Of a stretch of DNA of 64,000 nt, positions 34,720 through 61,844 are shown piece after piece. Below the pieces are notes generated by a model. That model worked only from the letters and a program-made list of their open reading frames with translations. It ran no database searches and was not told the origin of the DNA. The DNA comes from Deltaproteobacteria bacterium. GTDB taxonomy: Bacteria > Desulfobacterota > Syntrophia > Syntrophales > UBA2210. The DNA is taken from contig JAFGGB010000087.1 in NCBI GenBank assembly GCA_016930775.1, positions 405 through 64,404 on the forward strand, written 5' to 3'. The position numbers and the translations under genes are program-made. The stretch's first letter is position 1, and each line of letters opens with the position of its first letter.

Positions 34720-35569
34720 GAACGCACTCGGTAAAGGCCTCGGGGCTCTTTTTTCAGATCTCGTCGATAACGCCGGCGCCGGCATTGTCAGTGCCGTCTG
34801 CGGCATTGAAGAGCTTTCGCCAAATCCTTATCAGCCCAGAAAGGTTTTCGACAGGGATGAGCTCAACCGGCTTGCCTCATCTATTTCAGAAAAGGGCATC
34901 ATTCAACCCATCGTGGTTCGAAGAACCGGTGGAGGCTATGAAATCATCGCCGGTGAACGTCGCTGGCGGGCGGCCCAAACTGCCGGTCTCAAGGAAGTTC
35001 CTATCGTAATTCGCGATGCCGATGATGCGGAGGTCGCTCAGCTTTCCCTCATAGAGAACCTTCAGAGAGAGGAGCTTAATCCTATCGAGGAAGCACATGC
35101 TTACCGGACGCTTGTGGACCGATTCGACCTGTCTCAGGAGGCCGTTGCCCTGATCGTGGGCAAGGATCGTTCCACCGTGACGAACACTCTCAGACTCTTG
35201 AAACTTCCCCAGGACATACAAGATGCGCTGAGCTCAAAAAAAATTACCGTCGGTCACGCCCGACCCCTCCTTTCGGTAGAATCGGTTCAGAATCAACTCT
35301 ACGCTTTCAATCGAGTTATGGCGAAGCGCCTCAGTGTCCGTGAAACGGAACTTCTCGTAAAGAAACTGACGGCAGATGCTCCAAAACAGTCGGTTCGCCA
35401 TGAAAAGGAACAAGCCATTGTCGATCTGGAAAACCGTCTTTCCCGACATTATCTAGCCAAAATCACAATAAATCCGGCAGTCAGGGGAGGCTCCATCGAA
35501 ATCCGTTACACCTCGGCGGATGATCTCAATCGGTTGCTGACGCTCCTGGCAAAAAACGATCATACGTGA
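34709..35569 (+). CDS. parB: chromosome partitioning protein ParB (Spo0J)
   Basis: MTRKNALGKGLGALF start, the GERRWRAA arginine patch and an HTH region. It overlaps the parA stop by 11 nt. Confidence 0.95.
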   Translation: MTRKNALGKGLGALFSDLVDNAGAGIVSAVCGIEELSPNPYQPRKVFDRDELNRLASSISEKGIIQPIVVRRTGGGYEIIAGERRWRAAQTAGLKEVPIVIRDADDAEVAQLSLIENLQREELNPIEEAHAYRTLVDRFDLSQEAVALIVGKDRSTVTNTLRLLKLPQDIQDALSSKKITVGHARPLLSVESVQNQLYAFNRVMAKRLSVRETELLVKKLTADAPKQSVRHEKEQAIVDLENRLSRHYLAKITINPAVRGGSIEIRYTSADDLNRLLTLLAKNDHT

Positions 35570-35605
35570 TTTTCTATGGCGGCGGGAGCGAGTCAGGAAA
35601 CGAGC

Positions 35606-35637
35606 TGTATCAACAACTGTTTACAAAGTTGTTTATA
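35606..35637. promoter_or_regulatory. degenerate DnaA-box-like repeats in the dnaA upstream region
   Basis: GTATCAACA (35606-35614) and the direct repeats TGTTTACAA and TGTTTATAA (35617-35625 and 35629-35637). Read on the other strand these are TTGTAAACA and TTATAAACA. That is 2 and 1 mismatches, respectively, to TTWTNCACA. Confidence 0.25.
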
Positions 35638-35650
35638 AGGGTAGTGGTCA

Positions 35651-36994
35651 TTGGAAACGATTTGGTTACATGCTATAGATATAATTCACAAAAATGTAAG
35701 TCAGCATCCTTTCGAAACCTGGATACGGCCCATCAAACTTGTTGCTATTGAAGGAACGAATGTGCAGCTGTCCGTTCCGAATATTTTTTTTAAAGACTGG
35801 CTTCGCGATAATTATCAAACAGTTATTCAGGGAGCGCTGGAATCTACGATGGGAATGCCCGTAACGATCAGTTTCGTCGTAGCAAAAGATGATCCGCTTC
35901 AAACAAGAGCGCAAATCAAACGTACAGCTGTCCACAAAGAACAAAAGAAAAAAAGAACCTCCATACATCCTTCTCTTAATTCTCACTATACATTTGATCG
36001 CTTTGTGGTCGGTTCCAGCAACCAGTTTGCCCATGCAGCCGCCACATCTGTTGCCGAACAGCCGGCAGCGAATTACAACCCTCTCTTTATTTACGGCGGC
36101 GTCGGTCTTGGAAAGACTCATCTCCTGAATGCCATCGGCATTCAAACAAACACGCTCTACCCGGAAAAGAATGTTCTCTATGTATCGGCTGAGGAATTCA
36201 TGAATGAGTTGATCAATTCCATTCGCTATGACAAAATGCCTTTGTTCCGGGAAAAATATAGGAATATCGATTCCTTGTTAATCGACGACATTCAGTTCAT
36301 CGCAGGGAAGGAACGAACGCAGGAGGAATTTTTCCATACGTTCAACACGCTTCATGATTCAGGCAAACAGATTGTCGTTACAAGCGATAAGTTTCCAAAG
36401 GAAATTCCCAATCTTGAAAAGAGACTCCGCTCACGATTTGAATGGGGTCTCATAGCGGACATACAACCTCCCGAAATAGAAACAAGAGTAGCTATTCTTG
36501 AAAAGAAGGCTCAGGAAAACAATATAGATATTCCAACTGCAGTGGCACACTACATTGCCTCCATCGCGGATTCCAATATCAGAGAATTGGAAGGAATTCT
36601 CACACGTGTCGCTGCATATTCTTCACTTACGGGCCGAATCATCGATATCGCTCTCGTTAAAGAGATCATAAAAAATATTTTAAGTCCAAGCAATACACGT
36701 AAGATAACCGTCGATATGGTCCTGAAAGCAGTGGCGTTAAAATTTAAAATAAAAATATCTGAGATTAAATCGGAGAAAAAAAATAAAAATCTTGTTCTTC
36801 CCCGCCAGATTGCCATGTATCTGTCCCGTTGTCTGACAGACGATTCTTTTCCGGATATCGGTATAAAAATGGGAGGAAGAGATCACTCGACGGTGATTTA
36901 CGCAAATAAAAAAATTTCCTCCTTACTTGAGCAAAATATTGAACTGAAATATACCGTCGAGGAAATTGAAGAGAGTCTGCACACCGGTGCCTAA
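35651..36994 (+). CDS. dnaA: chromosomal replication initiator DnaA
   Basis: 447 aa with a TTG start. FDRFVVGSSNQFAHAAA, Walker A GGVGLGKTHLL, LLIDDIQF and the domain IV motifs (LPRQIAMYL, GGRDHSTVIYA). Confidence 0.95.
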   Translation: METIWLHAIDIIHKNVSQHPFETWIRPIKLVAIEGTNVQLSVPNIFFKDWLRDNYQTVIQGALESTMGMPVTISFVVAKDDPLQTRAQIKRTAVHKEQKKKRTSIHPSLNSHYTFDRFVVGSSNQFAHAAATSVAEQPAANYNPLFIYGGVGLGKTHLLNAIGIQTNTLYPEKNVLYVSAEEFMNELINSIRYDKMPLFREKYRNIDSLLIDDIQFIAGKERTQEEFFHTFNTLHDSGKQIVVTSDKFPKEIPNLEKRLRSRFEWGLIADIQPPEIETRVAILEKKAQENNIDIPTAVAHYIASIADSNIRELEGILTRVAAYSSLTGRIIDIALVKEIIKNILSPSNTRKITVDMVLKAVALKFKIKISEIKSEKKNKNLVLPRQIAMYLSRCLTDDSFPDIGIKMGGRDHSTVIYANKKISSLLEQNIELKYTVEEIEESLHTGA

Positions 36995-37141
36995 ACATTC
37001 AATCACCGAGCATATTTCTTTTTTAATTAAAGTGAAACAGCGGCTTGCTGACAATTATCAACATATGAACAGGTCTTACTACTACTACTATTTATTTTTA
37101 TCTTAATTAGACTACAATAAAAGAACGAGGGGAACGACATT
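36995..37141. promoter_or_regulatory. candidate oriC / DNA-unwinding element between dnaA and dnaN
   Basis: One DnaA-box-like TTATCAACA (37055-37063). It is followed by a very AT-rich run (37076-37122) containing (TAC)4 and TATTTATTTTTATCTTAATTAG. No cluster of perfect boxes is present. Confidence 0.3.
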
Positions 37142-38260
37142 ATGAAATTTACAATTGAACGGAATGTCATTCTAATGGCGGTTCAAAAAACCTTGGGAAT
37201 TGTTGAACGAAAAACAACCATTCCGATTTTGAACAATATTCTTATAGAGGCCTTGGAATCATCGATACGTGTGGTTGCATCGGACCGTGAGATTGGCCTG
37301 CAGTCGAGCTACCCCGCCGATGTGGAAGTGAAGGGTTCGGTGACGGCGCCGGCCAAAAAATTAAGTGAGATGATACGGGAACTCTCCGGTGAAACGGTTG
37401 CGTTCGATGTGACCGACAACAACTGGATTACTGTCAGTAGCGGCACTGTGGTGTATCGCGTTCCGGGTTTGCCTGCATCAGAGTTTCCTGATGTAAAGTA
37501 TGATATAAGCGATATTTCAACAATACTGCCCTGTGATGTTCTTGGGAGAATGATTGCCCAGACGATTTTTGCCGTTTCATCCGATGATATGAGGCCGGTG
37601 CTGAATGGGGTCTATGTAATGTCGCCTGTCGAAGGATTTATTGAGATGGTTGCGACGGATGGACACAGGCTGTCGCTTGCGAAACGGTCCATTGCAGAAT
37701 CTGCGGAAAGCTTTATAGAGAAAGGAATAATAATTCCTCGGAAAGGTCTATCTGAGCTGAAGAAGCTTGTGGAAGACAATATAGGGAATGTTACATTGAG
37801 CGTTTCCAGGGGAATGCTCCTTGCCCATCGTGATGCAGCTGTTCTTGGCATCAGTCTGATTGACGGTGAATATCCCGATTACAAGAAGGTTATACCGGTT
37901 GACAAAGGCATTGAAATAGAGTTGCCAAGGATGATGATGCTTCAGGCGTTGCGACGAATGAGCGTCATGTCGAACGAACGGTTCAGTGGTGTGAGGATTA
38001 AGCTTCAGGAGGGAAAAATTATTCTGAATTCCATTAATCCTGGTGTCGGGGAGGCAACCGACGAGATCGGAATAGTTTATTCTGGGGATGTCGTAGAAGT
38101 AGGGTATAATGTTCGCTATCTGATTGATGCCATAGAGGGCGTCGACGACGAAAGGATATCTTTTGAAATGAGACCGGGAAGTGGGCCGGGTGTTGTGCGG
38201 TCTCTCGGAGAAGATAGTTACCTCTGCATCATTATGCCGATAAAACTGAGAACTGAGTAA
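37142..38260 (+). CDS. dnaN: DNA polymerase III beta sliding clamp
   Basis: 372 aa with a three-domain clamp pattern (MKFTIERN..., TILPILNNILIE, ATDGHRLS). Its position after dnaA fits. Confidence 0.93.
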   Translation: MKFTIERNVILMAVQKTLGIVERKTTIPILNNILIEALESSIRVVASDREIGLQSSYPADVEVKGSVTAPAKKLSEMIRELSGETVAFDVTDNNWITVSSGTVVYRVPGLPASEFPDVKYDISDISTILPCDVLGRMIAQTIFAVSSDDMRPVLNGVYVMSPVEGFIEMVATDGHRLSLAKRSIAESAESFIEKGIIIPRKGLSELKKLVEDNIGNVTLSVSRGMLLAHRDAAVLGISLIDGEYPDYKKVIPVDKGIEIELPRMMMLQALRRMSVMSNERFSGVRIKLQEGKIILNSINPGVGEATDEIGIVYSGDVVEVGYNVRYLIDAIEGVDDERISFEMRPGSGPGVVRSLGEDSYLCIIMPIKLRTE

Positions 38261-40684
<2,424 letters not shown>

Positions 40685-40782
40685 ACGAACTGACGATCGA
40701 GAAGTGCGATATATCTGCGGGCGCCGACGGGATTCTCGACGGTTCCCTTACTATCGACGAAGAAGCGGAGGAAAATCCTTAC

Positions 40783-43269
40783 ATGGATCAGGTCTTTCAG
40801 CGGAATATCCCTGTTAATATCGAAGATGAAATGAAGAAGTCCTATCTTGACTACGCCATGAGCGTTATCGTTGGTCGCGCAATACCGGACGCCCGCGACG
40901 GTCTCAAACCAGTCCATCGCAGGGCTCTTTATGCCATGTCGGAATTGGGGAACCGATGGAACAAGTCCTATAAGAAATCGGCTCGCATCGTCGGCGATAT
41001 CATTGGTAAATATCATCCCCACGGAGACTCTGCGGCCTACGATACGATCGTAAGGATGGCTCAGGATTTTTCGATGCGGTACCCATTGGTGGACGGCCAG
41101 GGCAACTTTGGTTCCGTGGACGGCGATCCTCCTGCGGCAATGCGGTACACGGAAATCCGCATGACCCGTTTCGCCGAGGAACTCCTGTCGGATATCGACA
41201 AGGATACTGTCGATTTCACGCCCAATTATGACGGCTCTCTTGTAGAGCCTCTTGTCATGCCGGCGAAGATCCCCGTTCTCCTGCTGAACGGCTCCTCCGG
41301 GATAGCTGTCGGCTTGGCCGGCAACATACCGCCTCACAACCTTACGGAAGTGGTGGACGGTCTCGTTGCCCTCATTAAAAATCCCGATCTTTCCATTGAA
41401 GAACTGATGCATTTCATCAAAGGTCCCGACTTTCCAACGGCAGGATTCATTAACGGTCGCCAGGGGATTATATCAGCCTACCGGACAGGCCGGGGCATCA
41501 TCAGGATACGGGCGCGGGCGCTGGTGGAACGAAATGCCAGGACGGATCGGGAGAGCATCATCGTCACGGAACTTCCCTATGCGGTTAACAAGGCCATGCT
41601 CATAGAGAAAATTTCCGATCTTGTCAGAGAAAAGAAGATCACCGGCATTGCCGACCTTCGGGATGAATCCGATCGAGATGGAATGCGCATCGTCATTGAC
41701 ATGAAGAAGGACGAGATACCGGCGATAATACTCAATCAGCTGTACAAGCACACGCAGATGGAGGCTACCTTCGGAATTATCATGCTTGCCATCTATGAAG
41801 GACAGCCAAAGGTCTTCAATCTGAAGGAAATACTCGAGAGCTTCATCATGTTCCGCAAGGTCGTGATTACGAGACGAACGTCCTACGAACTTGCCCGGGC
41901 TCGCGAACGACTCCACATTCTCGAGGGCTTCATCATTGCGCTCAACGGCATAGACGACGTAATCGCAGTTATCAAGGCGGCCGAAAATACTGCAGCTGCA
42001 GCAGCGGCTCTCATGCGGGAATTCGGACTTTCGGATATTCAGGCCAAGTCCATTCTGGACATGAAACTCCATCGTCTTACGGGCCTCGAACAGGACAAGA
42101 TCCGTGAGGAACATCGGGACACAGCTGCACTGGTCGTCCATCTCGAGGGAATTCTTGCAGATCCGCAAAAAATTCTCGACATCATCATGGAGGAACTTGA
42201 GGAGGTGAAGCGCCGATTCGGCGACGAGCGGCGCACGGAGATCGTAACGGACAGCGAGGAAATCGACATTGAAGACATGATTGTCGAGGAAGATATGGTG
42301 GTCACCATCTCCCACCAGGGATACATTAAGCGCAATCCCGTGAGCCTTTACCGGAGCCAGCTCCGCGGCGGCAGGGGCAAGGTGGGCATGGGCACGAAAG
42401 ACGACGACTTCGTGGAGCGGATTTTCATCGCCTCGACCCACAGTCACATTCTTTTCTTTACGAACAGCGGGCGCGTTTACTGGCTGAAGATCTATCAGAT
42501 TCCCCAGGCGGGAAGAGCCGCCAAGGGCAAGGCGGTAATCAACCTTATAGGCATTTCCCAGGATGAAAGGATTACGGCCGTTCTTCCCGTTAAGGAATTC
42601 ACGGAAGATCGTTACGTTATTATGGCCACGAAAGAGGGCATTATCAAGAAAACGGATCTTATGGCCTATTCTCATCCGCGGACCGGCGGAATTATCGCCC
42701 TGACTCTCGACGAGGGAGACGAACTGATCGACGTGAAACAGACCGACGGCAACCAGGAGATCCTCCTGGCCACCCGACAGGGCAATGCCATCCGGTTCAA
42801 GGAAGGAGATGTGCGTCCCGTGGGCAGAACCTCTCGAGGCGTTACAGGCGTCAGAATGGCAAGCGGCGACAGGGTCATCGGCATGGAGATTCTCAGCGAA
42901 GGAACGACAATACTTACTGTGTCGGACCGGGGATGTGGGAAGCGAACGGAAATCGACAAGTATCGTCTCCAGAGCCGGGGCGGCAAGGGAATCATAAACA
43001 TGAAAGTTACCCCGAAGGTGGGAATGGTTTCACGAGTGAAACTGGTCACGGGCGAGGAAGATATAATGCTCATCAGCAACTCGGGCAATATCATCAGACT
43101 GCACGTCGACAATATCCCCTCGCTAGGCCGCGGAACGCAGGGCGTCAAGCTTATTGATCTTGCCGCCGGAGAAATTCTCGTCGGTTGTGCGCGGGTAGAG
43201 CGCGAGGAGCCAGGCGTCGCCGATGCAGAGGAAGAGACAGGAGAGGACAACGCGCTCCTGGATATTTGA
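40783..43269 (+). CDS. gyrA: DNA gyrase subunit A
   Basis: [28 protein letters not shown], the QRDR region [13 protein letters not shown], the active-site AAMRYTE and C-terminal beta-pinwheel repeats. Confidence 0.97.
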
Positions 43270-47289: not shown

Positions 47290-47365
47290 AAACACTTGAT
47301 TATTCTTGCTTAATGCTTTATGGGTTTCTACCCGTAAGTACAAGCAATCGGAAGGGGAACCAGCT

Positions 47366-48652
47366 ATGCCGCATTTCTTGACAACGGTGCGCTCTAAAGA
47401 AGATTTGGAGACCATACAACTGAAAGGTCTTCAGTGGACCTGCCGTCACGCCTATGAGGGATCGCCTTTTTATCGGAAGCGCTTCGATGATGCAGGCATC
47501 GGTCTCGAGGACATTCGATCCCTTGAAGACTTGCAGCGCCTTCCCTTCACTACCGCCGCCGATCTGCAGGAACAGTATCCCTGGCCCCTTCGCTCCGTTC
47601 CCTTTGAGAAGATAGTCCGCATCCATGCGTCCTCGGGGACCACGGGGAAACGTAAAGTAATGGTATATACGGCCAAGGATATAGACGACTGGGCCGATAT
47701 GTTCGCCCGCTGCTACGCAACGGCCGGACTCTCCCGCGCAGACCGCGTGCAGATTTGCGTAGGTTACGGCGTTTGGACGGCCGGCGTAGGTTTTCAGCTG
47801 GGATGCGAACGATTTGGCGCCATGGCGGTTCCCGTCGGACCCGGCAACATAGATATGCAGATGCAGTTCCTTGTAGATTTTCAGCCCACCGTGCTCTGTG
47901 CCACGGCATCCATGGCCCTTCTCCTTGCAGAGGAGGTGGACAAGCGGGGTCTCGGAAACAAAGTCGCCGTTAAAAAGGTGATCTTCGGCGCCGAACGGTC
48001 TACGGACGCCATGCGGTCGAAAATCCGGGAGTTGTTTGGCGCGGAACATACCTTCGACATTCCGGGATTAACGGAGGCCTATGGTCCGGGGACCGGTCTG
48101 GATTGCCAGCTGCATCAAGGAATTCATTACTGGGCCGATTACTATATCCTTGAGGTCCTCAATCCCGAGACCCTGGCGCCTGTTCGAAACGGCGAAGTTG
48201 GCGAGATGGTTTACACGACGCTCCGCAAGGAGGGGGCGCCCCTGATTCGCTATCGTTCCCGCGATCTCACCAGATTGATTTCGGGCGATTGCCCCTGCGG
48301 ATCTCTTTTCCCCCGGCATGACAGGATTCTCGGCCGGTCGGACGATATGTTCATAGTGCGCGGCGTGAATATTTATCCGGGGCATGTGGATGAGATACTC
48401 GCGGCGGAAAAGGGAATCGGCAGCGAATACCAGATTCACCTGGACAGGAAGGAAGACGGCAAGGACTACATGACGGTTCTCGTGGAGCGGGCTTCCGATG
48501 GAGATCCTTTAGCCGACGAACCGTTGAGCAGGAAAATCGAGCGGGATCTCAGGAAAGAGCTTCTGGTGAGCGGCGCCGTGAAGATTGTCCGGTACGGGTC
48601 GCTTCCGCGGACCGATCGAAAGACGAAAAGGGTTTTCGACAACAGGGACTGA
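47366..48652 (+). CDS. paaK: phenylacetate-CoA ligase family (aryl-acetate--CoA ligase)
   Basis: PFYRKRFDDAGI, LQRLPFTTAADL, the AMP motif HASSGTTGKRKV, YGVWTAG and a C-terminal ACT-like region. The start at 47366 follows GGAAGGGGA. Confidence 0.85.
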   Translation: MPHFLTTVRSKEDLETIQLKGLQWTCRHAYEGSPFYRKRFDDAGIGLEDIRSLEDLQRLPFTTAADLQEQYPWPLRSVPFEKIVRIHASSGTTGKRKVMVYTAKDIDDWADMFARCYATAGLSRADRVQICVGYGVWTAGVGFQLGCERFGAMAVPVGPGNIDMQMQFLVDFQPTVLCATASMALLLAEEVDKRGLGNKVAVKKVIFGAERSTDAMRSKIRELFGAEHTFDIPGLTEAYGPGTGLDCQLHQGIHYWADYYILEVLNPETLAPVRNGEVGEMVYTTLRKEGAPLIRYRSRDLTRLISGDCPCGSLFPRHDRILGRSDDMFIVRGVNIYPGHVDEILAAEKGIGSEYQIHLDRKEDGKDYMTVLVERASDGDPLADEPLSRKIERDLRKELLVSGAVKIVRYGSLPRTDRKTKRVFDNRD

Positions 48653-48660
48653 AAAAAGCC

Positions 48661-48689
48661 TTGCTTTTTTACAGAAGCTGCATTATACG
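48661..48689 (+). promoter_or_regulatory. sigma-70-like promoter candidate for the leader-iorAB transcript
   Basis: TTGCTT - 17 nt - TATACG, about 35 nt upstream of the leader ORF ATG. Confidence 0.3.
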
Positions 48690-48723
48690 TTTCTCTCCAT
48701 AAGAACACGAGGGGGTTATTTTC

Positions 48724-48798
48724 ATGTGCGGTAAACAAACAATCCTCTGGCGCTGGTGGCGCATATATAGATCGGGGAGGTCTGTTCACTGCCGGTAG
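48724..48798 (+). CDS. 24-codon Trp-rich leader peptide candidate (MCGKQTILWRWWRIYRSGRSVHCR)
   Basis: The ATG at 48724 lies 9 nt after GAGGGGG. Three TGG codons fall within four codons (48748-48759), and the stop is TAG at 48796. The ORF is below the track's size cutoff, so I read it by hand. Confidence 0.45.
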   Translation: MCGKQTILWRWWRIYRSGRSVHCR

Positions 48799-48823
48799 CC
48801 CCTCGGGGGAGATTGTCGACGAT

Positions 48824-48858
48824 AAAGCCGTGAACATCCTTTGTTCACGGCTTTTTTT
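48824..48858 (+). terminator. strong intrinsic terminator between the leader ORF and iorA (attenuator candidate)
   Basis: AAAGCCGTGAACA-TCCTT-TGTTCACGGCTTT is a perfect 13-bp stem running into a T7 tract. It ends 24 nt before the iorA ATG. Confidence 0.8.
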
Positions 48859-48881
48859 ACATTAGATTCACAGGTGTTTGT

Positions 48882-50720
48882 ATGGATTGCATTGAGAACA
48901 GAATTCTCATGGGGAACGAGGCCATCGGGCGGGGCCTCGTGGAGGCGGGATGTACGCTGGCGACTTCCTATCCGGGGACGCCGGCTTCAGAGGTTCTTGA
49001 ATCGGTTGTGGCCTTCGCCCGGGAAACGGGGGCGCCGGTTCATACTGAATGGTCCGTGAATGAGAAAGTGGCCTATGAGGTGGCGCTGGCAAACAGTTAC
49101 GCCGGAAAACGTTCCTCCGTTGCGATGAAGCAGGTTGGACTCAATGTTGCTTCGGACCCTTTCATGAGGTCGGCCTATCTCGGCGTCGTGGGAGGACTTG
49201 TAGTGGTTGTTGCCGACGACCCGGGGCCGCACAGTTCCCAGACAGAGCAGGACAGCCGGTTTTTTTCGCTTTTCGCTCATATCCCCGTATTCGATCCCTC
49301 GACGCCCGCCGAGGCGAAGGACATGGTGGAACGGGCCTTCTCTCTTTCCGAAGAATACGAACTCCCGGTGATGCTGAGACCGACAACCAGAGTATGTCAC
49401 GCCCGCCAGAATGTGATTTGCCGGGCGCCTCGGAGGCTCTCACGAAAAGCCTCCTTCGAAAAAAATCCTGCACGATGGGTGGCGACTCCCAGATATCTCA
49501 CAAAGCTCCACGGGCTGCTCAACGAGAAGGTGGAGGCGATCGCCCGGGATAAAAGTTTTTTGCCGACCCGTATTGCAGGCGACGGCAGCTTTGCCCGCCG
49601 ATGTATCATTGCTTCCGGCGTTGCCTATGCCAATGTACACGATCTCCTACGGGAAATGGGCGTCCTGGGCCGTATCGATTGCTACAAAGTAAACCTGCCG
49701 TATCCTCTGAACAGAGACTTTATCGAAACGATTGATCAACAGTACGACACTGTCATGGTCTTCGAGGAGACCTATCCGACCATCGAGTGCCAGCTTGCCG
49801 CCAGGGGTGTCCGGGGCCGGCGGACCAAGGATGTCCCCAACTGTGGCGAGCTGACGCCCGACATCATCGATGAGGTCCTGAGAAAGTTCCTGGGCCTTTC
49901 GCCGACGGCGAAAACAGAACCGGCGGCGCCAGGCGTGAGGCCGACGCTCTGCCCCGGCTGCCCCCACCGCGCTGCCTTTTTCGCCATCAGAGAAACGTTT
50001 CCCGATGGAATCTTTCCGAGCGACATAGGATGCTATACCTTGGGCATGAATTTCGGCGCTGTCGATACCTGCCATTGCATGGGCGCCTGCATCAGTCAGG
50101 GGGCGGGCTTTTATCATGCCTATTCCGCGGATGGCGGGGCGTTTCCCACGGTCGTCGTCACCATTGGAGATTCCACCTTTTTCCATGCCGGCATACCAGC
50201 TTTGGTGAATGCCGTTTTCTCGGGCGCCCGTATCATCGTAGTTATTCTCGACAACGGCACAACGGCCATGACGGGCAGTCAGCCGACGCCTCAAGTAGGC
50301 ATCAGGGCAGACGGAAGCCGGGGCCGGCGCGTTTTCATCGCTGATCTTGTCAGCGCATCCGGCGTGTCCTTCCTGCGCCGGTGCGATCCCTACGATATGG
50401 AGACCTTCAGGCATCATTTGATTGAGGCCGACGGGTACATACGAAGCAACGATGGCGGAGTGGCCGTAATAATTGCCGAACATCCCTGCATCCTGGATCG
50501 CGATTCCATGAAGAATCAGACCTTTTATGAAATGACAGTAGAGGATTCCTGCGTGGGCTGCAGGATCTGCATCAATACATTTGAATGTCCCGGCCTTGTT
50601 TTTGACGAAGGAACGAAAAAGGCAGTCATTGCCGACGGCGTTTGCATCGGCTGCGGCGTCTGTTCGACCGCCTGTCCTGTGGGTGCTATTTCGGCGGATA
50701 GTCGGAGCGAAAGTATATGA
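48882..50720 (+). CDS. iorA: indolepyruvate:ferredoxin oxidoreductase alpha subunit
   Basis: 612 aa. N-terminus LMGNEAIGRGLVEAGCTLATSYPGTPASE, then a TPP-binding region (GDSTFFHAG) and two C-terminal 4Fe-4S motifs (CVGCRICINTFECP, CIGCGVCSTACP). Confidence 0.9.
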   Translation: MDCIENRILMGNEAIGRGLVEAGCTLATSYPGTPASEVLESVVAFARETGAPVHTEWSVNEKVAYEVALANSYAGKRSSVAMKQVGLNVASDPFMRSAYLGVVGGLVVVVADDPGPHSSQTEQDSRFFSLFAHIPVFDPSTPAEAKDMVERAFSLSEEYELPVMLRPTTRVCHARQNVICRAPRRLSRKASFEKNPARWVATPRYLTKLHGLLNEKVEAIARDKSFLPTRIAGDGSFARRCIIASGVAYANVHDLLREMGVLGRIDCYKVNLPYPLNRDFIETIDQQYDTVMVFEETYPTIECQLAARGVRGRRTKDVPNCGELTPDIIDEVLRKFLGLSPTAKTEPAAPGVRPTLCPGCPHRAAFFAIRETFPDGIFPSDIGCYTLGMNFGAVDTCHCMGACISQGAGFYHAYSADGGAFPTVVVTIGDSTFFHAGIPALVNAVFSGARIIVVILDNGTTAMTGSQPTPQVGIRADGSRGRRVFIADLVSASGVSFLRRCDPYDMETFRHHLIEADGYIRSNDGGVAVIIAEHPCILDRDSMKNQTFYEMTVEDSCVGCRICINTFECPGLVFDEGTKKAVIADGVCIGCGVCSTACPVGAISADSRSESI

Positions 50721-51232
50721 ATCAGCAAATTATCATCAGCGGGCTTGGGGGACAGGGCATCCTGTTTCTTACAAAACTCCTAGCCCAGGCGGCCATGGAC
50801 AGCGGGAACGATGTAATTACCTCGGAAACCCACGGCATGGCCATGAGAGGAGGAACCGTTGTCTCTCACGTAAAGATCGGTTCCTTCCTGAGCCCCCTTA
50901 TCAGAACCGGACAAGCGGACATGGGGTTTTTCCTGACGGCGGGCAGCTTTGAAATTCATAGAGCGTTCCTCCGCGAAGGGGCGCCTGCCGTTATCAATAC
51001 ACCCAGGACCGATGGACCATTCGCAATCGATGCCGCTGCCATCGCCCGCGAGGCGGGAGCTCGTATGGCAACAAACCTGGTTCTTCTTGGTTTCGCCGTT
51101 AAACGAGACCTGCCTTTCTGCACAGTTTCCATCATGAGGGAGGCCATAGGACGGCTGTCTCCCTCTCGACATAGACAGATGAATATTGAGGGCTTTGAAC
51201 GGGGATTAAACTATGAAGGAGGTGCATCATGA
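50717..51232 (+). CDS. iorB: indolepyruvate:ferredoxin oxidoreductase beta subunit
   Basis: IIISGLGGQGILFLTKLLAQAAM ... SETHGMAMRGGTVVSHVKIG is typical of the gamma-like domain of 2-oxoacid:ferredoxin oxidoreductases. A 4-nt ATGA overlap links it to iorA. Confidence 0.88.
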   Translation: MNQQIIISGLGGQGILFLTKLLAQAAMDSGNDVITSETHGMAMRGGTVVSHVKIGSFLSPLIRTGQADMGFFLTAGSFEIHRAFLREGAPAVINTPRTDGPFAIDAAAIAREAGARMATNLVLLGFAVKRDLPFCTVSIMREAIGRLSPSRHRQMNIEGFERGLNYEGGAS

Positions 51233-52251
51233 AGATGCGCGTGCTGTGTCCATTGTTAGCAGTGTTACTGATTGCAAGTGCTGTTGTTGTGCCGCAACCG
51301 GTCGCGGCCGGTCCTCTAACGCTGACCTATGCCAACTTTCCTCCAGCTTCCACGTTTCCCTGCGTCCAGATGGAACGGTGGAAAACAGAGGCGGAAAAAC
51401 GGACCGACCGGGCCGTCCAGATTCAGACCTTTCCGGGCGGCACGCTTTTGGGAGCGAAGAATATGCTCGATGGAGTCATCTCCGGTCAGGCTGATATCGG
51501 CTGCTTTGCCATGTCATACCATCCCGGACGATTTCCCGTTCTTGAAGTGGTCGACCTCCCGCTGGGATGGTCTAACGCCACAGTTGCCAGTCTTGCCCTC
51601 TGGGATCTTTACAACCAGTACCAGCCGGAATCGCTTAGCAAGGTGAAGGTTCTGACTCTTTTTACATGCCCTCCGGCAAACATTATGTCCATCAAGCCGG
51701 TCAGAACGATTGATGATCTGAAGGGTTTCGAAATCAGGGCTGCCGGAACGGGCGTCAAAGTCTTTGAGCTGCTGGGAGCGGCGCCCATCGGAATGCCCCA
51801 GTCAGACGTTCCCGACGCCCTTCACCGAGGCGTCATTCAGGGCATGGCCTCTTCACTGGAGGTTATGAAAGATTTCAAATATGCCGAGTACTGCCGTTTC
51901 ATAACCATGACGAACCTCCAGGTCGTCACCTTCGGCGTGGTAATGAATCTTGACCGCTGGAAAACTCTTCCCGAAAAGACCCAGGCTGCACTGAACTCTT
52001 TGGGCCGCGAGCAGGCGGAGTGGACGGGCCGGTATGTGGATGACCATGTAACCGAAGCCGTGGCTTGGTCGAAGAAGACCTATAACGTGGAGGTCATCTC
52101 ATTGTCCCCCGGCGATCGGGAGCGAATGGACCAGCTCTTGAAGCCCCTGGTTGACGGATATATAGCACGGGTTGGATCGTCGATTCCGGGAGAAAAAATC
52201 GTTAAAGACGTGATCGCCCTGAAGAAACGCTACGAGCGAACAGTGAAATAA
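51229..52251 (+). CDS. dctP: TRAP transporter substrate-binding protein (DctP family)
   Basis: A signal peptide followed by the DctP-like pattern (LTYANFPPAS..., GVISGQADIG). It overlaps the iorB stop by 4 nt and is followed by dctQM. Confidence 0.8.
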   Translation: MKMRVLCPLLAVLLIASAVVVPQPVAAGPLTLTYANFPPASTFPCVQMERWKTEAEKRTDRAVQIQTFPGGTLLGAKNMLDGVISGQADIGCFAMSYHPGRFPVLEVVDLPLGWSNATVASLALWDLYNQYQPESLSKVKVLTLFTCPPANIMSIKPVRTIDDLKGFEIRAAGTGVKVFELLGAAPIGMPQSDVPDALHRGVIQGMASSLEVMKDFKYAEYCRFITMTNLQVVTFGVVMNLDRWKTLPEKTQAALNSLGREQAEWTGRYVDDHVTEAVAWSKKTYNVEVISLSPGDRERMDQLLKPLVDGYIARVGSSIPGEKIVKDVIALKKRYERTVK

Positions 52252-52275
52252 GGGTCGTTCAAAGGGAGATCTGCG

Positions 52276-52779
52276 ATGAATAAGATAATTCGAGGCCTCG
52301 ACGGTCTCATCGATTCTGTGAACAAAGCACTCATGGCGTCGGCAGGCGTTCTGCTCATTGCCATGGTTTGCCTTGCCACACTGAACGTAATCTTACGCAA
52401 AGCAGGCTTTCCCATGAATGGCGCCTTTGAAATCATGGGCTTTTTCGGCGCCCTCGTGGCATCCTTCGCGATGGGACAGACGCTGAAGGCAGGCGAGCAT
52501 ATCGCTATTGACGTGATCGTGAAGATGCTGCCGCGTGTGGTGCAAAGGATTTTTTTGACAGCAAACGACATCGTTTCCGCAGTCTTTTTCGGATTAGCCG
52601 CATGGAAGATCATTGTGTTGGGAACAAACCTCTGGAGAGTGAACGATCTTTCGGAGACACTGCGGATCCCCTACTTTCCCTTTCTTTACGGCGTCGCTTT
52701 CGGGAGCATTGTCATGACCCTGATGATTATCGTGGAAGGGGCTAAACGATTCGTGCCCCCGGGGGAGGTGAAACCATGA
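52276..52779 (+). CDS. dctQ: TRAP transporter small permease (DctQ)
   Basis: 167 aa with 4 TM helices, positioned between dctP and dctM. Confidence 0.8.
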   Translation: MNKIIRGLDGLIDSVNKALMASAGVLLIAMVCLATLNVILRKAGFPMNGAFEIMGFFGALVASFAMGQTLKAGEHIAIDVIVKMLPRVVQRIFLTANDIVSAVFFGLAAWKIIVLGTNLWRVNDLSETLRIPYFPFLYGVAFGSIVMTLMIIVEGAKRFVPPGEVKP

Positions 52780-54080
52780 CCTATTCCATTGTTGGTCTTG
52801 GGGGAATAGGACTCTTGATGGTTTTGCTCCTCCTCTTGGGAATGCCCGTTGGTTTCGCCATGGGGATCGTGGGCGTTGGAGGAATGGCGCTGATCGTGTC
52901 AGGGACGGCGGCGACCGCAATGCTGGGCACGGAGATGTGGAACATCTTTTCTTCCTACGGACTCACCATGATACCTCTCTTTATTCTCATGGGTGAAATC
53001 TGTTTCTATTCCGGTCTTAACCGGCGGCTCTTCAAAGCGACGCATACAGTTGCAGGGCATATTCGAGGCGGTCTTGCCATTGCCACGATCGCCGCCTGCG
53101 CGGGTTTTGCGGCTATCTGCGGTTCAAACACCGCCACGGCGGCGACTATGACGACAGTGGCGTTGCCGGAGATGAGAAAGTATCGGTACGAACCGGCCCT
53201 TTCTCTGGGGGCCATAGCCTGCGGTTCGACGCTGGGCGTCGTGATTCCGCCCAGCGTTGTCCTCATTATTATAGGGCTCTATACGGGACAATCGATCAGC
53301 AAGCTCTTCTATGGCGGCATACTCGCCGGACTGTTGTTGGCGGCTCTGTTTATGATTACCGTCTTCGTTCTCTGCTCAATAAAGCCGGAACGGAGTCCTG
53401 TGGCGAATCACTACAGTCTGCGGGAAAAGATTCGCGCCCTGCCCGGCTTCCTTGAAGCGCTTATTCTTTTTCTCCTGGTCATCGGCGGTCTCTATTCCGG
53501 ATTCTTCACACCCACGGAGGCGGGCGCCGTGGGATCCTTCCTGGCGCTGGTCATGGCCATGGGGCGGCGAAAGATCACATGGCAGGGATTCAAGACTGCC
53601 GTGGCGGAGACCCTGGAGATCTCTTGCATGGTCTTTGTCATTATTGCCGGCGCAGTTATGTTCAGTCGCTTCCTTGCAGTGACGCGGCTTCCTTTTACAG
53701 TTGCTGAATGGGTTGGGTCCCTGCCAGTTCCTCCCGTCGCAGTGCTCTCGGTAATCTTTGTCATCTATATTTTGGGCGGCGCAATTATGGACGCCCTTGC
53801 ATTTCTTCTGATAACGATTCCCATTTTTTTCCCTGTAGTTGAGAAACTTGGATACGATCCTCTGTGGTTCGGCGTCACGATCACAGTAATCACCACGCTC
53901 GGCGCCGTTACGCCCCCTGTAGGGGCAACGACCTACGTTGTGGCCGGCATGGCCAAGGACGAATCGATGACCACAGTTTTCAAGGGCATCTTCTATTTTC
54001 TGCCGGCCTATCTGCTCTGTGTCATTCTACTGGTAGCCTTTCCGTCTATTGTTACATACCTTCCGAATCTTGTACGTTAA
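52776..54080 (+). CDS. dctM: TRAP transporter large permease (DctM)
   Basis: 434 aa and polytopic. The motif AAICGSNTATAATM is typical of DctM. It overlaps dctQ by 4 nt. Confidence 0.88.
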   Translation: MTYSIVGLGGIGLLMVLLLLLGMPVGFAMGIVGVGGMALIVSGTAATAMLGTEMWNIFSSYGLTMIPLFILMGEICFYSGLNRRLFKATHTVAGHIRGGLAIATIAACAGFAAICGSNTATAATMTTVALPEMRKYRYEPALSLGAIACGSTLGVVIPPSVVLIIIGLYTGQSISKLFYGGILAGLLLAALFMITVFVLCSIKPERSPVANHYSLREKIRALPGFLEALILFLLVIGGLYSGFFTPTEAGAVGSFLALVMAMGRRKITWQGFKTAVAETLEISCMVFVIIAGAVMFSRFLAVTRLPFTVAEWVGSLPVPPVAVLSVIFVIYILGGAIMDALAFLLITIPIFFPVVEKLGYDPLWFGVTITVITTLGAVTPPVGATTYVVAGMAKDESMTTVFKGIFYFLPAYLLCVILLVAFPSIVTYLPNLVR

Positions 54081-54102
54081 AATCGTTATGAAAGGAGTGC
54101 AG

Positions 54103-54984
54103 ATGAGGACGGAGCGATTGAGCGGCGCGAGGAGTCTTCCGGTCTTTCCTGAGGATCGCTACGCAATGGTCGGAGACCTCAGGATCAGATACTGGATGGC
54201 GGGGAATGCAGGATCGCCGGTAGTCCTGATACACGGACTTGGTCTCTCGGCGGAAGTTTGGATGTTTACTCTGGAAACCTTGGCACGCCGCCGCCGTATC
54301 TTTGTACCGGACCTGCCGGGATTCGGCCGGAGCGAAAACCCGGCACATTATTCTACGGACTTCCTGGTTTCGTTCATCGATGAATTCCTGAAGGCCTGCT
54401 CCATAGACGAGGTCACGCTCGTAGGATCCTCTCTTGGAGGCGGGCTTTCACTTTTGTATGCGCTTGCCCATCCGGAACGTGTACAAAATCTTGTGCTCAT
54501 CGGCAGCGCCGGTTTCGGACGGGATATTTCTGCAGCCCTCAGGCTTCTCACGCTTCCCGTACTCGGAGAGTGTGTGACGACGCCTTCCCGCCGATGGACC
54601 AGACTGCTCCTTCGAACGTCTGTCTTCGATACATCGCTGATAACTGCTGCGGAAGTGACGCTTTTTTACAAGCTGTCACGGCTTCCGGGGAATCAGAAGG
54701 CCTTCCTGTCGATCCTTCGATCCGCTTGTTCGCTGGGCGGTGTGCGGGAGGAAATTCTGGGACCCATCCGCAGGGGTCTGCCCGGCCTCGTCATGCCGGC
54801 TCTTTTACTCTGGGGCGATCGAGACGCAGTGATCCCGTTGCGATACGGAGAGAAGGCCCGAAGCCTGATGCCGAAATCTTCCATGAAGGTTTTACACCGG
54901 TGCGGACATCTCCCCCCCTATGAGCGGCCGGATGAAACCTGCGACGCTATCCTCGACTTTCTTGACCGACAAGGAATATCGTAG
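54103..54984 (+). CDS. alpha/beta-fold hydrolase
   Basis: HGLGLS oxyanion region, nucleophile elbow GSSLGG and a C-terminal HRCGH. The ATG at 54103 lies 6 nt after AAAGGAG. Confidence 0.8.
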   Translation: MRTERLSGARSLPVFPEDRYAMVGDLRIRYWMAGNAGSPVVLIHGLGLSAEVWMFTLETLARRRRIFVPDLPGFGRSENPAHYSTDFLVSFIDEFLKACSIDEVTLVGSSLGGGLSLLYALAHPERVQNLVLIGSAGFGRDISAALRLLTLPVLGECVTTPSRRWTRLLLRTSVFDTSLITAAEVTLFYKLSRLPGNQKAFLSILRSACSLGGVREEILGPIRRGLPGLVMPALLLWGDRDAVIPLRYGEKARSLMPKSSMKVLHRCGHLPPYERPDETCDAILDFLDRQGIS

Positions 54985-55146: not shown

Positions 55147-56769
55147 ATGCGGGCAGATGACTTGCAGCGCCTTGAATTAATCGACATCGACTCCGTTTCA
55201 GGGTTTCCTTTCCTCGGCTCCCACAGGTTAATGGTTTTCAGCACGGCATCCCTGGGGCGTCTGAGGAAAGATCTCCAACGGGCCATAGGCCCGGAGCAAA
55301 CGAAGGTCATTCTCGCCCGGCACAGTTACGAAACCGGAATGGTTATGGCGATGGCCATAGGCGAACTCTATGAGTTTGATACGCCGGAAGAATGGCTGAA
55401 GGCGGGAAGCCGCATACGGACCATGGCTGGGCTGGCTCACGAACATATCGAGACGATATCTCTCGACAAGGAAACAAAGAGGTTATGCTTCCAGGGCACA
55501 TGGCAAGATTCTTTCGAAGTTCATATATGGAAGGAAAGCTTTGGCGTAAGCGCCGAATCCATATGCGTTATGCTTGCGGGCATGCTCAGCGGCTACGCAA
55601 GCACCGTTATGGGCGCCGAAGTCCTGGTTAGAGAACTGGCCTGTCAGGCGCAAGGCGAATCTCTCTGCCGTTTCGAGGGGCGGACAGTAGCCGAGTGGGG
55701 ACTCACGTCCGAGGAGGTGCAAGCCGTTTTCGCCGTCGGACCCATTGGCGAAGAACTAGTCTCTTTGAAGGCGGCGTTGCTGAAGGCCAACGATGAACTG
55801 GATCTTCAACACAGGCAGATTCAACGGCTCAAGCAGCTGGCTTACCGGCGGGAGCTCAAGGAAGATATAATTTTTCGGAGCGAATCCATGGCGAAAACTC
55901 TTATGCTAGCCGAAAAAGTGGCGCCGTCGGCTTCCACTGTTCTCATCCTGGGAGAAAGCGGTACGGGCAAGGAGGTTCTGGCCAAATTCATCCACCGTAA
56001 TTCCGGCAGAAAGGACCGCCCATTCCTGGCGATAAACTGCGCCGCACTGCCTCCAAACCTTCTGGAATCGGAGCTTTTCGGCCATCTGAAAGGATCATTT
56101 ACGGGGGCTGACAGGGACAAGAGGGGCCTGTGCGTTGAGGCCGGCGAAGGCACGCTCTTTCTCGACGAGGTTGGGGAGGTCCCCCTGGAGATGCAAGCGA
56201 AACTCCTCAGAGTTCTCCAGGAAAAGAGGATAAGGCCCGTCGGTGGAGTCCGAGACATTCCCGTGACCGCCAGGATCATTGCAGCAACGAACAGAAACCT
56301 TCACGAGATGGTTCAGCAGGGCGCTTTTCGAGAAGATCTCTATTATCGTCTAGCTGTATTTCCTGTAATTGTAATGCCTCTCAGGGATCGTCGCCAGGAT
56401 ATATTGCTCCTGGCGAGACATTTTCTCTCTCGATTGAAAAAGATTCATCGGGGCTTTTCACCGGAGAGCGTTCGTATGCTTGAGGCATACTCGTGGCCCG
56501 GAAATGTGCGTGAGCTGGAGAACTGGATGGAATATGCCGTTATAATGGCCGGCGACGATCTGATCAGACCCGAGCACTTTCCCCTGGCGCCGTTCGGCGA
56601 GGGCGGCTCTTTCAACGACTTGACGGCCGATTATCCTTCGCTCGATGAGCTGGCGCAACGGTATATATCAAGAGTGCTCGGTCATACGGGCGGAAACAAA
56701 CGAGAGGCGGCCCGGATACTCGGCATAGGCGCCAGCACCCTCTGGCGGAGGCTAAAGAATACTCCCTGA
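55147..56769 (+). CDS. sigma-54-dependent activator with XylR-N/V4R-type effector domain
   Basis: The N-terminal ~200 aa resemble XylR/DmpR sensor domains and end in the V4R-like [13 protein letters not shown]. These are followed by the AAA+ core ([26 protein letters not shown]) and a C-terminal HTH. Confidence 0.85.
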
Positions 56770-60541: not shown

Positions 60542-60686
60542 TCCTGCTGTTGAAAAGCATCAACAATGGAAGTGCGGGAAGGCGATTTGAAGGCCCTCAA
60601 AAAGGTGGGGAATGCCTGTTCGCGCTGAGTATTTTAATCGGTCGTTCATAGGTCGTCATGAACGAAGCGATAGAAGGCAGGCTCGT

Positions 60687-61844
60687 ATGGCATGTTTCAA
60701 TGTTCGATTGGGGCGATTCACGGAGTCAGTCATCAGAAGGATGACCAGAGTTGCCGATGAGTGCGGCGCCATCAATCTTTCCCAGGGATTTCCCGATTTT
60801 GATCCGCCGCTGGAACTGCGGCAGGCTTTGGCCGAGGTGGCCCTTAGGGGACCACATCAGTACGCTGTTACATGGGGAGCGTCGGCATTCCGAGAAGCTC
60901 TGGCGAAGAAACAGTCTCGATTTATGGGAATTCCCATAGATCCTGACAGCCACATCGTCGTTACATGCGGCAGCACCGAAGCAATGCTCGCAGCGATGAT
61001 GACAGTTTGCAATACCGGCGACGGCGTAATTGTCTTTTCGCCTTTTTATGAGAATTACGGCGCCGATGCCATTCTTTCAGGAGCTGAGCCTATATACGTT
61101 CCCCTCAGACCGCCATATTTCGAATTCGACCGGAAGGAATTGAAAAGAGCTTTCGATCGGAAGCCCAAGGCCATGGTGTTGTGCAATCCCTCGAATCCCT
61201 CAGGAAAGGTTTTCACGAAAGAAGAGCTGGAATATATTGCGGGACTTGCCAATGACTCCGGCGCCTTCATTATTACCGACGAGGTCTACGAGCATATCGT
61301 CTATCCACCGAACCGTCATACATACATGGCGTCGCTGCCGGACATGTTCGACCGGACCCTGTCCGTCGGTTCCCTGTCGAAGACCTATTCGATCACCGGT
61401 TGGCGGTTGGGATACATTATCGCCGCTTCCCCCATCATAGCGGAAGCGAGAAAAATTCATGATTTCGTAACGGTAGGCGCCGCGGCGCCCCTTCAGGAAG
61501 CTGCCGTCACCGCTCTTTCATTGCCTGATTCATATTACGGGGAATTGCTGGAGGGATATAGGGAGAGGAGAGATTTTTTCCTCCGTCATCTCGATCGGGC
61601 TGGATTGAAATATTATGTCCCCCAAGGGGCTTATTATGTCCTCGTTGATATTTCAGATTTCCGATGGAAGGACGACGTGGGCTTTTGCGAAAGGATGGCC
61701 CGGGAAGTCGGTGTGGCGGCCGTGCCTGGCTCCAGTTTCTTTCACGAACCGGTGAATCACCTGATTCGACTCCACTTTGCCAAAAGCATCGAGACGCTTA
61801 AAGAGGCGGGCGAGCGACTCGCTTTTTTGAGAGAAAAAATGTAA
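60687..61844 (+). CDS. class I/II pyridoxal-phosphate-dependent aminotransferase
   Basis: INLSQGFPDF, YENYGA, NPSNPSGKVF and the PLP-lysine motif SLSKTYSITGWRLGY. The start is moved to 60687. Confidence 0.88.
   Translation: MACFNVRLGRFTESVIRRMTRVADECGAINLSQGFPDFDPPLELRQALAEVALRGPHQYAVTWGASAFREALAKKQSRFMGIPIDPDSHIVVTCGSTEAMLAAMMTVCNTGDGVIVFSPFYENYGADAILSGAEPIYVPLRPPYFEFDRKELKRAFDRKPKAMVLCNPSNPSGKVFTKEELEYIAGLANDSGAFIITDEVYEHIVYPPNRHTYMASLPDMFDRTLSVGSLSKTYSITGWRLGYIIAASPIIAEARKIHDFVTVGAAAPLQEAAVTALSLPDSYYGELLEGYRERRDFFLRHLDRAGLKYYVPQGAYYVLVDISDFRWKDDVGFCERMAREVGVAAVPGSSFFHEPVNHLIRLHFAKSIETLKEAGERLAFLREKM

Follow-up and report, generated by a model that had tools for sequence, protein, structure and literature searches.

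What purpose does an indolepyruvate:ferredoxin oxidoreductase (IOR) serve in an anaerobe of the Syntrophales, and what switches its genes on? The question is raised by a 64,000-nucleotide (nt) stretch of a deltaproteobacterial contig (JAFGGB010000087.1), referred to throughout as the window, in which a 229-nt gap separates a paaK-like gene (end 48652) from iorA (start 48882) and contains a short open reading frame (ORF) with clustered tryptophan (Trp) codons and a strong intrinsic terminator. Leader-peptide attenuators report the purpose of the genes that they control, because those genes are switched on when a given amino acid is short. An earlier reading of the window alone (the original prediction) had proposed such an attenuator in this gap, and we consider it highly probable that the gap does hold a ribosome-mediated transcription attenuator which senses charged tRNA-Trp and gates iorA, iorB and dctPQM, with iorA and iorB the first genes downstream. 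Within the window by itself only the terminator stands out, and the case against a chance arrangement therefore rests on conservation in relatives.

Trp-rich leaders upstream of iorA in related genomes

A search with the IorA protein gave 55 loci on contigs representing one genome per species, together with 70 metagenome loci. Nearly all of the 55 genome loci come from Syntrophales, Smithella, Syntrophaceae or unclassified deltaproteobacterial metagenome-assembled genomes (MAGs), at 58–71% identity, with one outlier from NC10 at 41%. The comparison used the 103 iorA loci in which at least 200 nt upstream of iorA are visible. A Trp-rich leader and a strong intrinsic terminator precede iorA in 85 of the 103; 72 of these came from an automatic screen, which required a short ORF with its Trp codons in a cluster and, within 90 nt, a stem and T tract, and 13 were added by inspection, these having terminators with a mismatch or spaced Trp codons. 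The mini-ORF and stems, on whose recurrence the original prediction had staked its case, are therefore conserved upstream of iorA. The order (paaK)-leader-iorA-iorB-dctPQM is the rule among leader-bearing loci and paaK lies directly upstream of the leader in most relatives, and the leader also recurs where the upstream gene is a different one.

Among 62 distinct leaders, which are 14–30 codons long (mostly 24–29), the longest run of Trp codons is three in 41, four in 14 and two in 6. Outside this run the peptides vary by lineage (for example ...NWWWWCKIPGRGLFTA, ...LWWWRSSHKGSGVRV, ...YWWWWR and ...AWWWIMTSSGLRLVH), and the Trp-rich segment is the part of the peptide common to all terminator classes. 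What every class conserves is the start codon, the frame, the run of TGG codons and the place of the stop codon relative to the antiterminator. No leader with a run of phenylalanine (Phe), tyrosine (Tyr) or other codons was seen in the 19 loci first scored as leaderless or across the whole window; one of the 19 (L091) has a W-P-W leader.

We built a covariance model (R1) from 24 relatives, leaving the window out. Searched against the 64-kb window, it has a sole plus-strand match, at 48739-48860, which spans the full length of the model (61.5 bits, E = 3.4e-12); a second match is the palindromic terminator stem read on the minus strand.

The window leader has three TGG codons arranged as W-R-W-W and a GAGGGGG Shine-Dalgarno (SD) sequence, as originally described, although the SD lies 8 nt rather than 9 nt from the ATG. 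The 13-bp perfect terminator with its T7 tract is likewise as described and is by far the best terminator-like site in the 14 kb scanned (43–57 kb), with the small correction that the T7 tract ends 23 nt, and not 24 nt, before the iorA ATG.

Antiterminator pairing and the predicted switch

The last codons of the window leader contain TGTTCAC (48783-48789), which is complementary to GTGAACA (48830-48836) in the 5' arm of the terminator. Pairing extends past one mismatch by G91-C28 and C92-G27 (numbered by the last two digits of their positions) and on the other side by GAGG (48777-80) with CCUU (48838-41). When the nascent RNA is folded from past a stalled ribosome to the terminator loop (48770-48841), GAGG..UGUUCAC.GC pairs with GC.GUGAACA.CCUU at -22.2 kcal/mol, and the cognate duplex beats 95% of mononucleotide shuffles. 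We refer to the 5' strand of this antiterminator as segment 2, and to its partner, the 5' arm and loop of the terminator, as segment 3.

The antiterminator pairing is kept in relatives with compensatory changes. Terminator stems differ by lineage, being GCCGUGAACA in the window's class (GUGAACA), GUGGACA, GGCCAUGGG (CCAUGGG), GUGGAUG/GCGGAUG, or the long GAGCCGUGGGCAGCC (GCCGUGGGCAGCC), and in each lineage the last leader codons are complementary to the cognate terminator 5' arm and loop: GGUCUGUUCAC with GUGAACAGAUC, CUGUCCGC with GUGGACA, GUGC..GUCUA.GGC with GCC.UGGGCGCAC, and GGCUUGUCC with GGAUGAGCC. In an alignment of 25 sequences from the window's class and the nearest class (A/B), the 13 antiterminator pairs are 91.4% paired, against 30–49% for slid controls, and 6 of the 13 are changed on both sides, a value reached by none of 500 shuffles; the terminator hairpin is 97.1% paired in the same 25 relatives. 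The class C antiterminator is 95.6% paired, against 12–53% for slid controls. Cognate duplex energies clearly beat shuffles in classes A, B and D, and a matrix of cognate against non-cognate duplex energies is clear only for classes A and D, being confounded by the long GC-rich arms of class E. Within the class of the window, nucleotide conservation in the paired part of the ORF reaches even the wobble positions, and this 3' part is therefore constrained as RNA and not as peptide.

The spacing of these elements fits the dimensions of a translating ribosome. Across the 62 leaders, segment 2 starts at a median of 22 nt past the first base of the last Trp codon (the bulk at 18–27 nt), a distance that places it immediately past the 3' margin of a ribosome halted at that codon. 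In most loci, -8 to +5 nt (median -2 nt) separate the stop codon from the 3' end of segment 2, which would put the antiterminator strand under a ribosome that has reached the stop. The corresponding values for the window, by the duplex definition, are 19 nt from the first base of the final Trp codon to the start of segment 2 and 2 nt from the end of segment 2 to the stop. The spacing of all three elements is as required by the earlier proposal, in which a ribosome at the TAG would cover the antiterminator and one stalled at the Trp codons would leave it free.

A classical switch is predicted from these elements, their conservation, covariation and geometry, and the gene context, all established here; the start of transcription, the stalling, the response to Trp and the direction of the enzyme are what we infer from them. 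Transcription would initiate just past the paaK stop codon, and the 24-codon leader would be translated as it is synthesized. With Trp-tRNA plentiful, the ribosome would reach the TAG at 48796 and cover segment 2 (48777-48792), the terminator (48824-48858) would fold and transcription would halt 23 nt before iorA. With Trp-tRNA scarce, the ribosome would stall at W-R-W-W (48748-48759), leaving segment 2, about 19 nt further 3', free to pair with the emerging terminator 5' arm and loop; no terminator would then form, and polymerase would read through into iorAB-dctPQM.

In RNA free of ribosomes, segment 2 would be tied up by upstream sequence, making termination the default. Its upstream partner is predicted to be the start-codon and SD region in the window and the Trp-codon run in relatives. 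In the ribosome-free minimum free energy (MFE) structure of the window, a long hairpin encloses the leader ORF, and bases of the SD and start region pair with segment 2 and with the CCCCUCG after the stop. For 19 full leaders from the class of the window, RNAalifold predicts the terminator together with a 5-bp helix in which the Trp-codon run pairs with the 3' end of segment 2. Six leaders (L025, L037, L066 and L102 among them) have their stop codon right after the Trp run and must therefore rely on 1:2 pairing. For two of these, L025 and L037, the Trp-codon run in the folded free RNA pairs with the antiterminator region, leaving the terminator 5' arm unpaired, and masking the Trp codons lets the antiterminator form, a classical 1:2 versus 2:3 switch. 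The complementarity between the SD (CGAGGGG, 48708-48714) and a downstream CCCCTCG, noted in the original prediction, is present, with the latter at 48799-48805 rather than 48800-06, but this pairing is not conserved in relatives. We regard the anti-antiterminator as probably real in principle but lineage-specific.

Promoter-like box, neighbouring genes and second leaders

A TTGCTT-17-TATACG promoter candidate is present in the window as originally described, and its counterpart is kept in position in relatives. A positional count gives the succession A-rich tract, TTG[ACG][ACT]T, 16–18 nt of spacer (nearly always 17) and TA in 49 of 61 distinct related loci, mostly 18–38 nt upstream of the leader ATG, and most of the remaining 12 have near variants. 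For the -10 hexamer, its position and the first two bases (TA) are conserved, but the rest of TATACG is poor and is not a general feature. Transcription would probably start near 48696, just past the paaK stop codon. Scored against a TTGACA/TATAAT consensus, the mean best value equals that of shuffles, the scoring having picked up paaK coding sequence, and a generic promoter scan of the window did not report the TTGCTT-17-TATACG box. The A-tract, which is conserved in relatives, and a T-run that follows the -35 box make up a weak inverted repeat rich in A/U, AAAAAAGC-CTT-GCTTTTTT (48653-48671, plus strand), right after the paaK stop; this could be an UP-like element or a weak paaK terminator.

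The genes upstream of the gap are rtcB, a thioredoxin-reductase-like gene, lgt and the paaK-like gene. The last encodes a putative aryl-acetate-CoA ligase, whose match to NCBIfam TIGR02155 (391 bits) is far under the cutoff of 646; it lies 5' of the attenuator and thus beyond its control in the window. IorA matches the NCBIfam IOR_alpha model over its full length with 622.5 bits, just under the cutoff of 650.9. The coding regions of iorA, iorB, dctP, dctQ and dctM, the last three specifying a tripartite ATP-independent periplasmic (TRAP) transporter, abut or overlap, and dctPQM would accordingly be co-transcribed with iorAB. An ORF for an alpha/beta-fold hydrolase (54049-54984, plus strand) overlaps the 3' end of dctM by about 30 nt and the attenuated operon may therefore end with this gene; the related loci showed no homologue in the equivalent position.

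In eight relatives a second Trp-run leader, with terminator and promoter box, is located directly upstream of paaK (Table 1), and R1 also detects such second copies. One such leader reads MMTIVRYDSYWWWQNNIGSRPSAG, and that of L001 has decayed to a single Trp (MNILHLTCCWRRR). In these eight genomes the ligase, the oxidoreductase and the transporter would therefore all be under Trp attenuation. The window has no paaK leader, because paaK follows lgt by only 17 nt.

The 18 leaderless loci have other gene layouts, paralogous or rearranged ior clusters among them. One type, without TRAP genes, has paaK, an 80-nt gap and iorAB (L030, L047, L090 and L094), and in L030 and L047 the cluster is next to a divergent sigma-54 activator; L024 and L046 have the order dctPQM-paaK-iorA with gaps of 3–9 nt. 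In several relatives, spacers that are normally compact have been enlarged by 200–450 nt of sequence rich in palindromes (for example ...cctccgctggcggaggtg...), either between the terminator and iorA (L002, ~3750-4006; L006, ~3670-4006; L056; L058-L061) or between paaK and the leader (L010, L037). The attenuator itself is intact in these, and the expansions look like inserted repetitive elements.

Several further features of the window were noted. A sigma-54-dependent activator (55147-56769, plus strand) lies immediately 3' of the operon, its best NCBIfam match, well under cutoff, being the phenol-degradation regulator MobR (V4R-type sensor); it could provide a second, aromatic-ligand-responsive input or be unrelated. 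A class I/II aminotransferase gene (60612-61844, plus strand), about 6.5 kb 3' of the operon and without linkage to the attenuator, is a candidate for the last step from indolepyruvate to Trp. The genes parB, dnaA, dnaN, gyrB and gyrA follow one another at 34613-43269 (plus strand), a run which suggests that the window covers the replication-origin region of the chromosome. On the minus strand, an ORF of 123 codons (48466-48837) spans the 3' end of paaK and the whole leader and is very probably spurious, because the conserved features lie on the plus strand.

Table 1. Positions of the attenuator elements and adjoining genes in the window, and of the paaK leaders in relatives (locus coordinates).
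Feature	Position	Strand	Description
PaaK-family aryl-acetate-CoA ligase gene (substrate putative)	47306-48652	+	Pfam AMP-binding, AMP-binding_C_2
A-tract and -35-like box TTGCTT	48652-48666	+	box at 48661-48666; from sequence; motif positionally kept in relatives
-10-like hexamer TATACG	48684-48689	+	17-nt spacer after TTGCTT
Shine-Dalgarno GAGGGGG of leader ORF	48709-48715	+	8 nt 5' of ATG; purine-rich tracts precede leader ATG in relatives
Leader ORF, 24 codons, MCGKQTILWRWWRIYRSGRSVHCR*	48724-48798	+	ATG 48724, TAG 48796; Trp-run leaders in 85/103 loci
Regulatory Trp codons (W-R-W-W)	48748-48759	+	TGG triplets; W9 48748-50, W11 and W12 48754-59
Segment 2, antiterminator 5' strand, GAGGUCUGUUCACUGC	48777-48792	+	last leader codons; pairs with 48827-48841 in nascent-RNA fold
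Anti-SD CCCCTCG	48799-48805	+	complementary to CGAGGGG 48708-48714; not conserved in relatives
Segment 3, terminator 5' arm and loop	48824-48841	+	partner of segment 2
Intrinsic terminator	48824-48858	+	13-bp perfect stem 48824-48854, 5-nt loop, T7 tract to 48858; -20.4 kcal/mol, z = -7.7
iorA	48882-50720	+	indolepyruvate:ferredoxin oxidoreductase subunit; Pfam, NCBIfam IOR_alpha
iorB	50717-51232	+	indolepyruvate:ferredoxin oxidoreductase subunit; IOR beta models (NCBIfam), Pfam
dctP, dctQ, dctM (TRAP transporter)	51229-54080	+	Pfam
paaK leader, L054	2298-2431		
paaK leader, L078	1292-1428		
paaK leader, L067	1292-1435		
paaK leader, L057	1201-1431		
paaK leader, L012	2310-2429		
paaK leader, L020	2318-2432		
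paaK leader, L103	~1285		
paaK leader, L001	2308-2431		single Trp

Alternative explanations, role of the operon and known systems

Several observations weigh against the attenuator as we describe it. The G-rich 72-nt antiterminator fold of the window is no better than shuffles (z = 0.15), and when ribosome footprints are masked in whole-leader MFE folds the mean fraction of the terminator 5' arm paired upstream is 0.56 for the stalled ribosome and 0.43 for the ribosome at the stop, so that the two states are not cleanly separated; these whole-leader structures are noisy, and the nascent-RNA sub-folds and alignment-based counts are more informative. Class C shows no covariation within the class, because its sequences are too alike, and for C, E and F the cognate duplex outdoes shuffles by a small margin only. 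The anti-antiterminator varies from lineage to lineage, the SD:anti-SD pairing of the window is not conserved, and the -10 hexamer lacks the canonical final T. As to function, both IorA and PaaK score under their NCBIfam equivalog cutoffs, the former just and the latter well below, and their substrate specificities are for that reason putative.

It might be supposed that the arrangement is a coincidence, the hairpin terminating lgt-paaK transcription, iorA having its own promoter and the Trp-rich mini-ORF being a chance frame. The hairpin does lie 3' of paaK, no other terminator follows that gene, and the antiterminator is statistically unremarkable in the window alone; but 85 of 103 loci have the ORF and its Trp run again, in a like placement ahead of the terminator, and these include loci with upstream genes other than paaK, the conserved promoter-like box lies 5' of the terminator and not 3' of it, and the 23 nt between the T tract and the iorA ATG leave no room for another promoter, all of which makes coincidence extremely unlikely. 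A riboswitch, or a leader bound by a protein or tRNA (of the T-box type or that of the trp RNA-binding attenuation protein) with an incidental ORF, would account for the strong conservation at the RNA level, wobble positions included, in the 3' part of the ORF. We consider this very improbable indeed, since no Rfam family, Trp_leader (RF00513) included, matches window positions 47500-50000 at E <= 10, RF00513 has no match in six related loci at E <= 1, the sole leader-region match in those six is a sub-threshold His leader, itself a leader-peptide attenuator, and no structured aptamer is conserved across classes, the features common to all being start codon, frame, TGG run and the position of the stop relative to the antiterminator. 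In a further alternative the leader encodes an arrest peptide like TnaC: free Trp would stall the ribosome and so induce a catabolic operon in which IOR serves the fermentation of Trp to indoleacetate. Textbooks do give IOR the task of decarboxylating indolepyruvate oxidatively when amino acids are fermented, and a Trp-containing leader ORF does precede the operon. However, the only conserved feature of the peptide is the run of three to four Trp codons, the remainder varying by lineage; there is no conserved arrest motif with a single Trp followed by Asp and Pro, and the C-termini differ (GRGLFTA, GSGVRV, GLRLVH, or none); and termination depends not on a Rho site but on a strong intrinsic terminator, which the antiterminator overlaps. 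A ribosome arrested at the stop would mask the antiterminator strand, which would favour termination over read-through, and the operon has a putative importer of indole acids, which a fermenter would excrete rather than import. An arrest peptide is thus a poor fit, and we think it very unlikely.

A different kind of alternative accepts the attenuator and questions its purpose: the operon might serve general aryl-acid and 2-oxoacid metabolism (interconversion of Phe, Tyr and Trp, or detoxification of indole acids), with Trp as one input among others. IOR enzymes are known to accept phenylpyruvate and 4-hydroxyphenylpyruvate as well, the substrate assignments here depend on homology under the equivalog cutoffs, and the activator of the MobR/phenol-regulator type lies just 3' (55147-56769). 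Against this, neither the leaderless paralogous loci nor the rest of the window has Phe- or Tyr-rich leaders, Trp-specific leaders stand before both paaK and iorAB in eight loci, and the binding protein of known structure closest to DctP is presumed to be one with indole ligands; we consider a general role unlikely, if clearly worth bearing in mind. The reading towards which we lean, at somewhat better than an even balance, is that IOR works here in the anabolic direction, from indole-3-acetate to Trp. On Trp shortage the TRAP system would import indole-3-acetate or indolepyruvate, the PaaK-like ligase would form indoleacetyl-CoA, IOR would carboxylate this reductively to indolepyruvate, and transamination would yield Trp. 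Induction on Trp-tRNA shortage together with a putative importer of indole acids fits such an anabolic route and not Trp fermentation, and the biosynthetic or salvage role favoured in the original prediction gains support from the ligase having its own Trp leader in eight relatives and from the likeness of DctP to a presumed binder of indole-3-acetate. To the fuller proposal, a dedicated Trp-salvage regulon of Syntrophales comprising TRAP uptake, PaaK-like ligase, IOR and transamination and responding to uncharged tRNA-Trp through one or two tandem attenuators, we would give an even chance.

The transporter offers a further indication of the substrate. The closest PDB chains to DctP are 4n6d (9e-116), followed by 4pgn, 4pgp and 4nap (~1e-95, full length), with the next match at 1e-31. 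We take 4PGN, 4PGP and 4NAP to be structures of Dde_0634 of O. alaskensis G20 with indole pyruvate, indole-3-acetate and tryptophan; the likeness of the window DctP to Dde_0634 hangs on this presumed mapping of PDB codes, and the DctP ligand is accordingly putative. Dde_0634 itself has been reported to bind indole-3-acetate (PMC9973260).

With this leader, classical attenuation would extend to Syntrophales and to a target operon other than trp. If the salvage reading is correct, IOR in these anaerobes would be an indolepyruvate synthase for Trp supply rather than a fermentative enzyme. An anabolic role for IOR in bacteria was reportedly proposed from old rumen labelling work, and to our knowledge has had no genetic support so far; the leader would then be the first regulatory evidence that a bacterial IOR runs in the anabolic direction in vivo. 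A family of TRAP transporters would gain a purpose and, in indole-3-acetate or indolepyruvate, a likely substrate. The finding also suggests cross-feeding in methanogenic consortia, with syntrophs living off indole acids excreted by amino-acid fermenters. Covariance model R1 can be used to annotate the leader in MAGs. In agreement with the original prediction, a literature search that included comparative-genomics papers, with most subscription journals outside its coverage, found no report of Trp attenuation before ior genes; among those papers, Rodionov et al. (2004) describe no Trp attenuator from delta-proteobacteria. What is new is the lineage, the sequence family, which has no Rfam model, and above all the target operon, the mechanism itself being classical.

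In Methanococcus maripaludis it is established that aromatic amino acids can be made from aryl acids by way of IOR (Porat et al., cited in PMC4162585). The enzyme family is the same, as is its proposed direction, reductive carboxylation of aryl-acetyl-CoA to arylpyruvates; that system is archaeal and is not known to have leader-peptide control, whereas the window enzyme is bacterial and accompanied by a TRAP importer, a PaaK-like ligase and predicted Trp attenuation. On the regulatory side, the iorA leader of L025, on a Smithellaceae chromosome (3834-3969), matches the Rfam His_leader (RF00514) over its full length below threshold (37.5 bits against a gathering score of 49, E = 0.018). This reflects resemblance to a classical leader-peptide attenuator, although the regulatory codons of the ior leader are Trp and not His, and the window leader itself has no match. 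In the tnaC leader, free Trp is sensed by a specific peptide that arrests the ribosome at the stop codon; Rho-dependent termination is thereby prevented and catabolism induced. This leader shares with the ior leader a Trp-containing peptide ahead of genes of Trp or indole metabolism, but the ior leader has a run of Trp codons, an intrinsic terminator and an overlapping antiterminator, a geometry that would give induction on shortage of Trp-tRNA.

The proposed mechanism is the one known from the trpL attenuator of the Escherichia coli trp operon (Trp_leader, RF00513), which has analogues before trpE(G) in Sinorhizobium meliloti and before trp genes in Corynebacterium and Streptomyces. In both, a short leader ORF contains Trp codons side by side, an intrinsic terminator stands directly ahead of the first structural gene, and an antiterminator excludes the terminator. 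Its 5' strand is covered by a ribosome at the stop and free when one stalls for Trp, with termination as the default, a behaviour that is predicted for the ior leader. The ior leader differs in having no sequence or covariance-model similarity to trpL and in its occurrence in Syntrophales (Thermodesulfobacteriota); relatives have three to four consecutive Trp codons as against two, the antiterminator also uses the terminator loop, and the anti-antiterminator is not conserved. Most distinctive are its predicted targets, which are not trp biosynthesis genes but iorAB and the TRAP transporter and, in some genomes, paaK.

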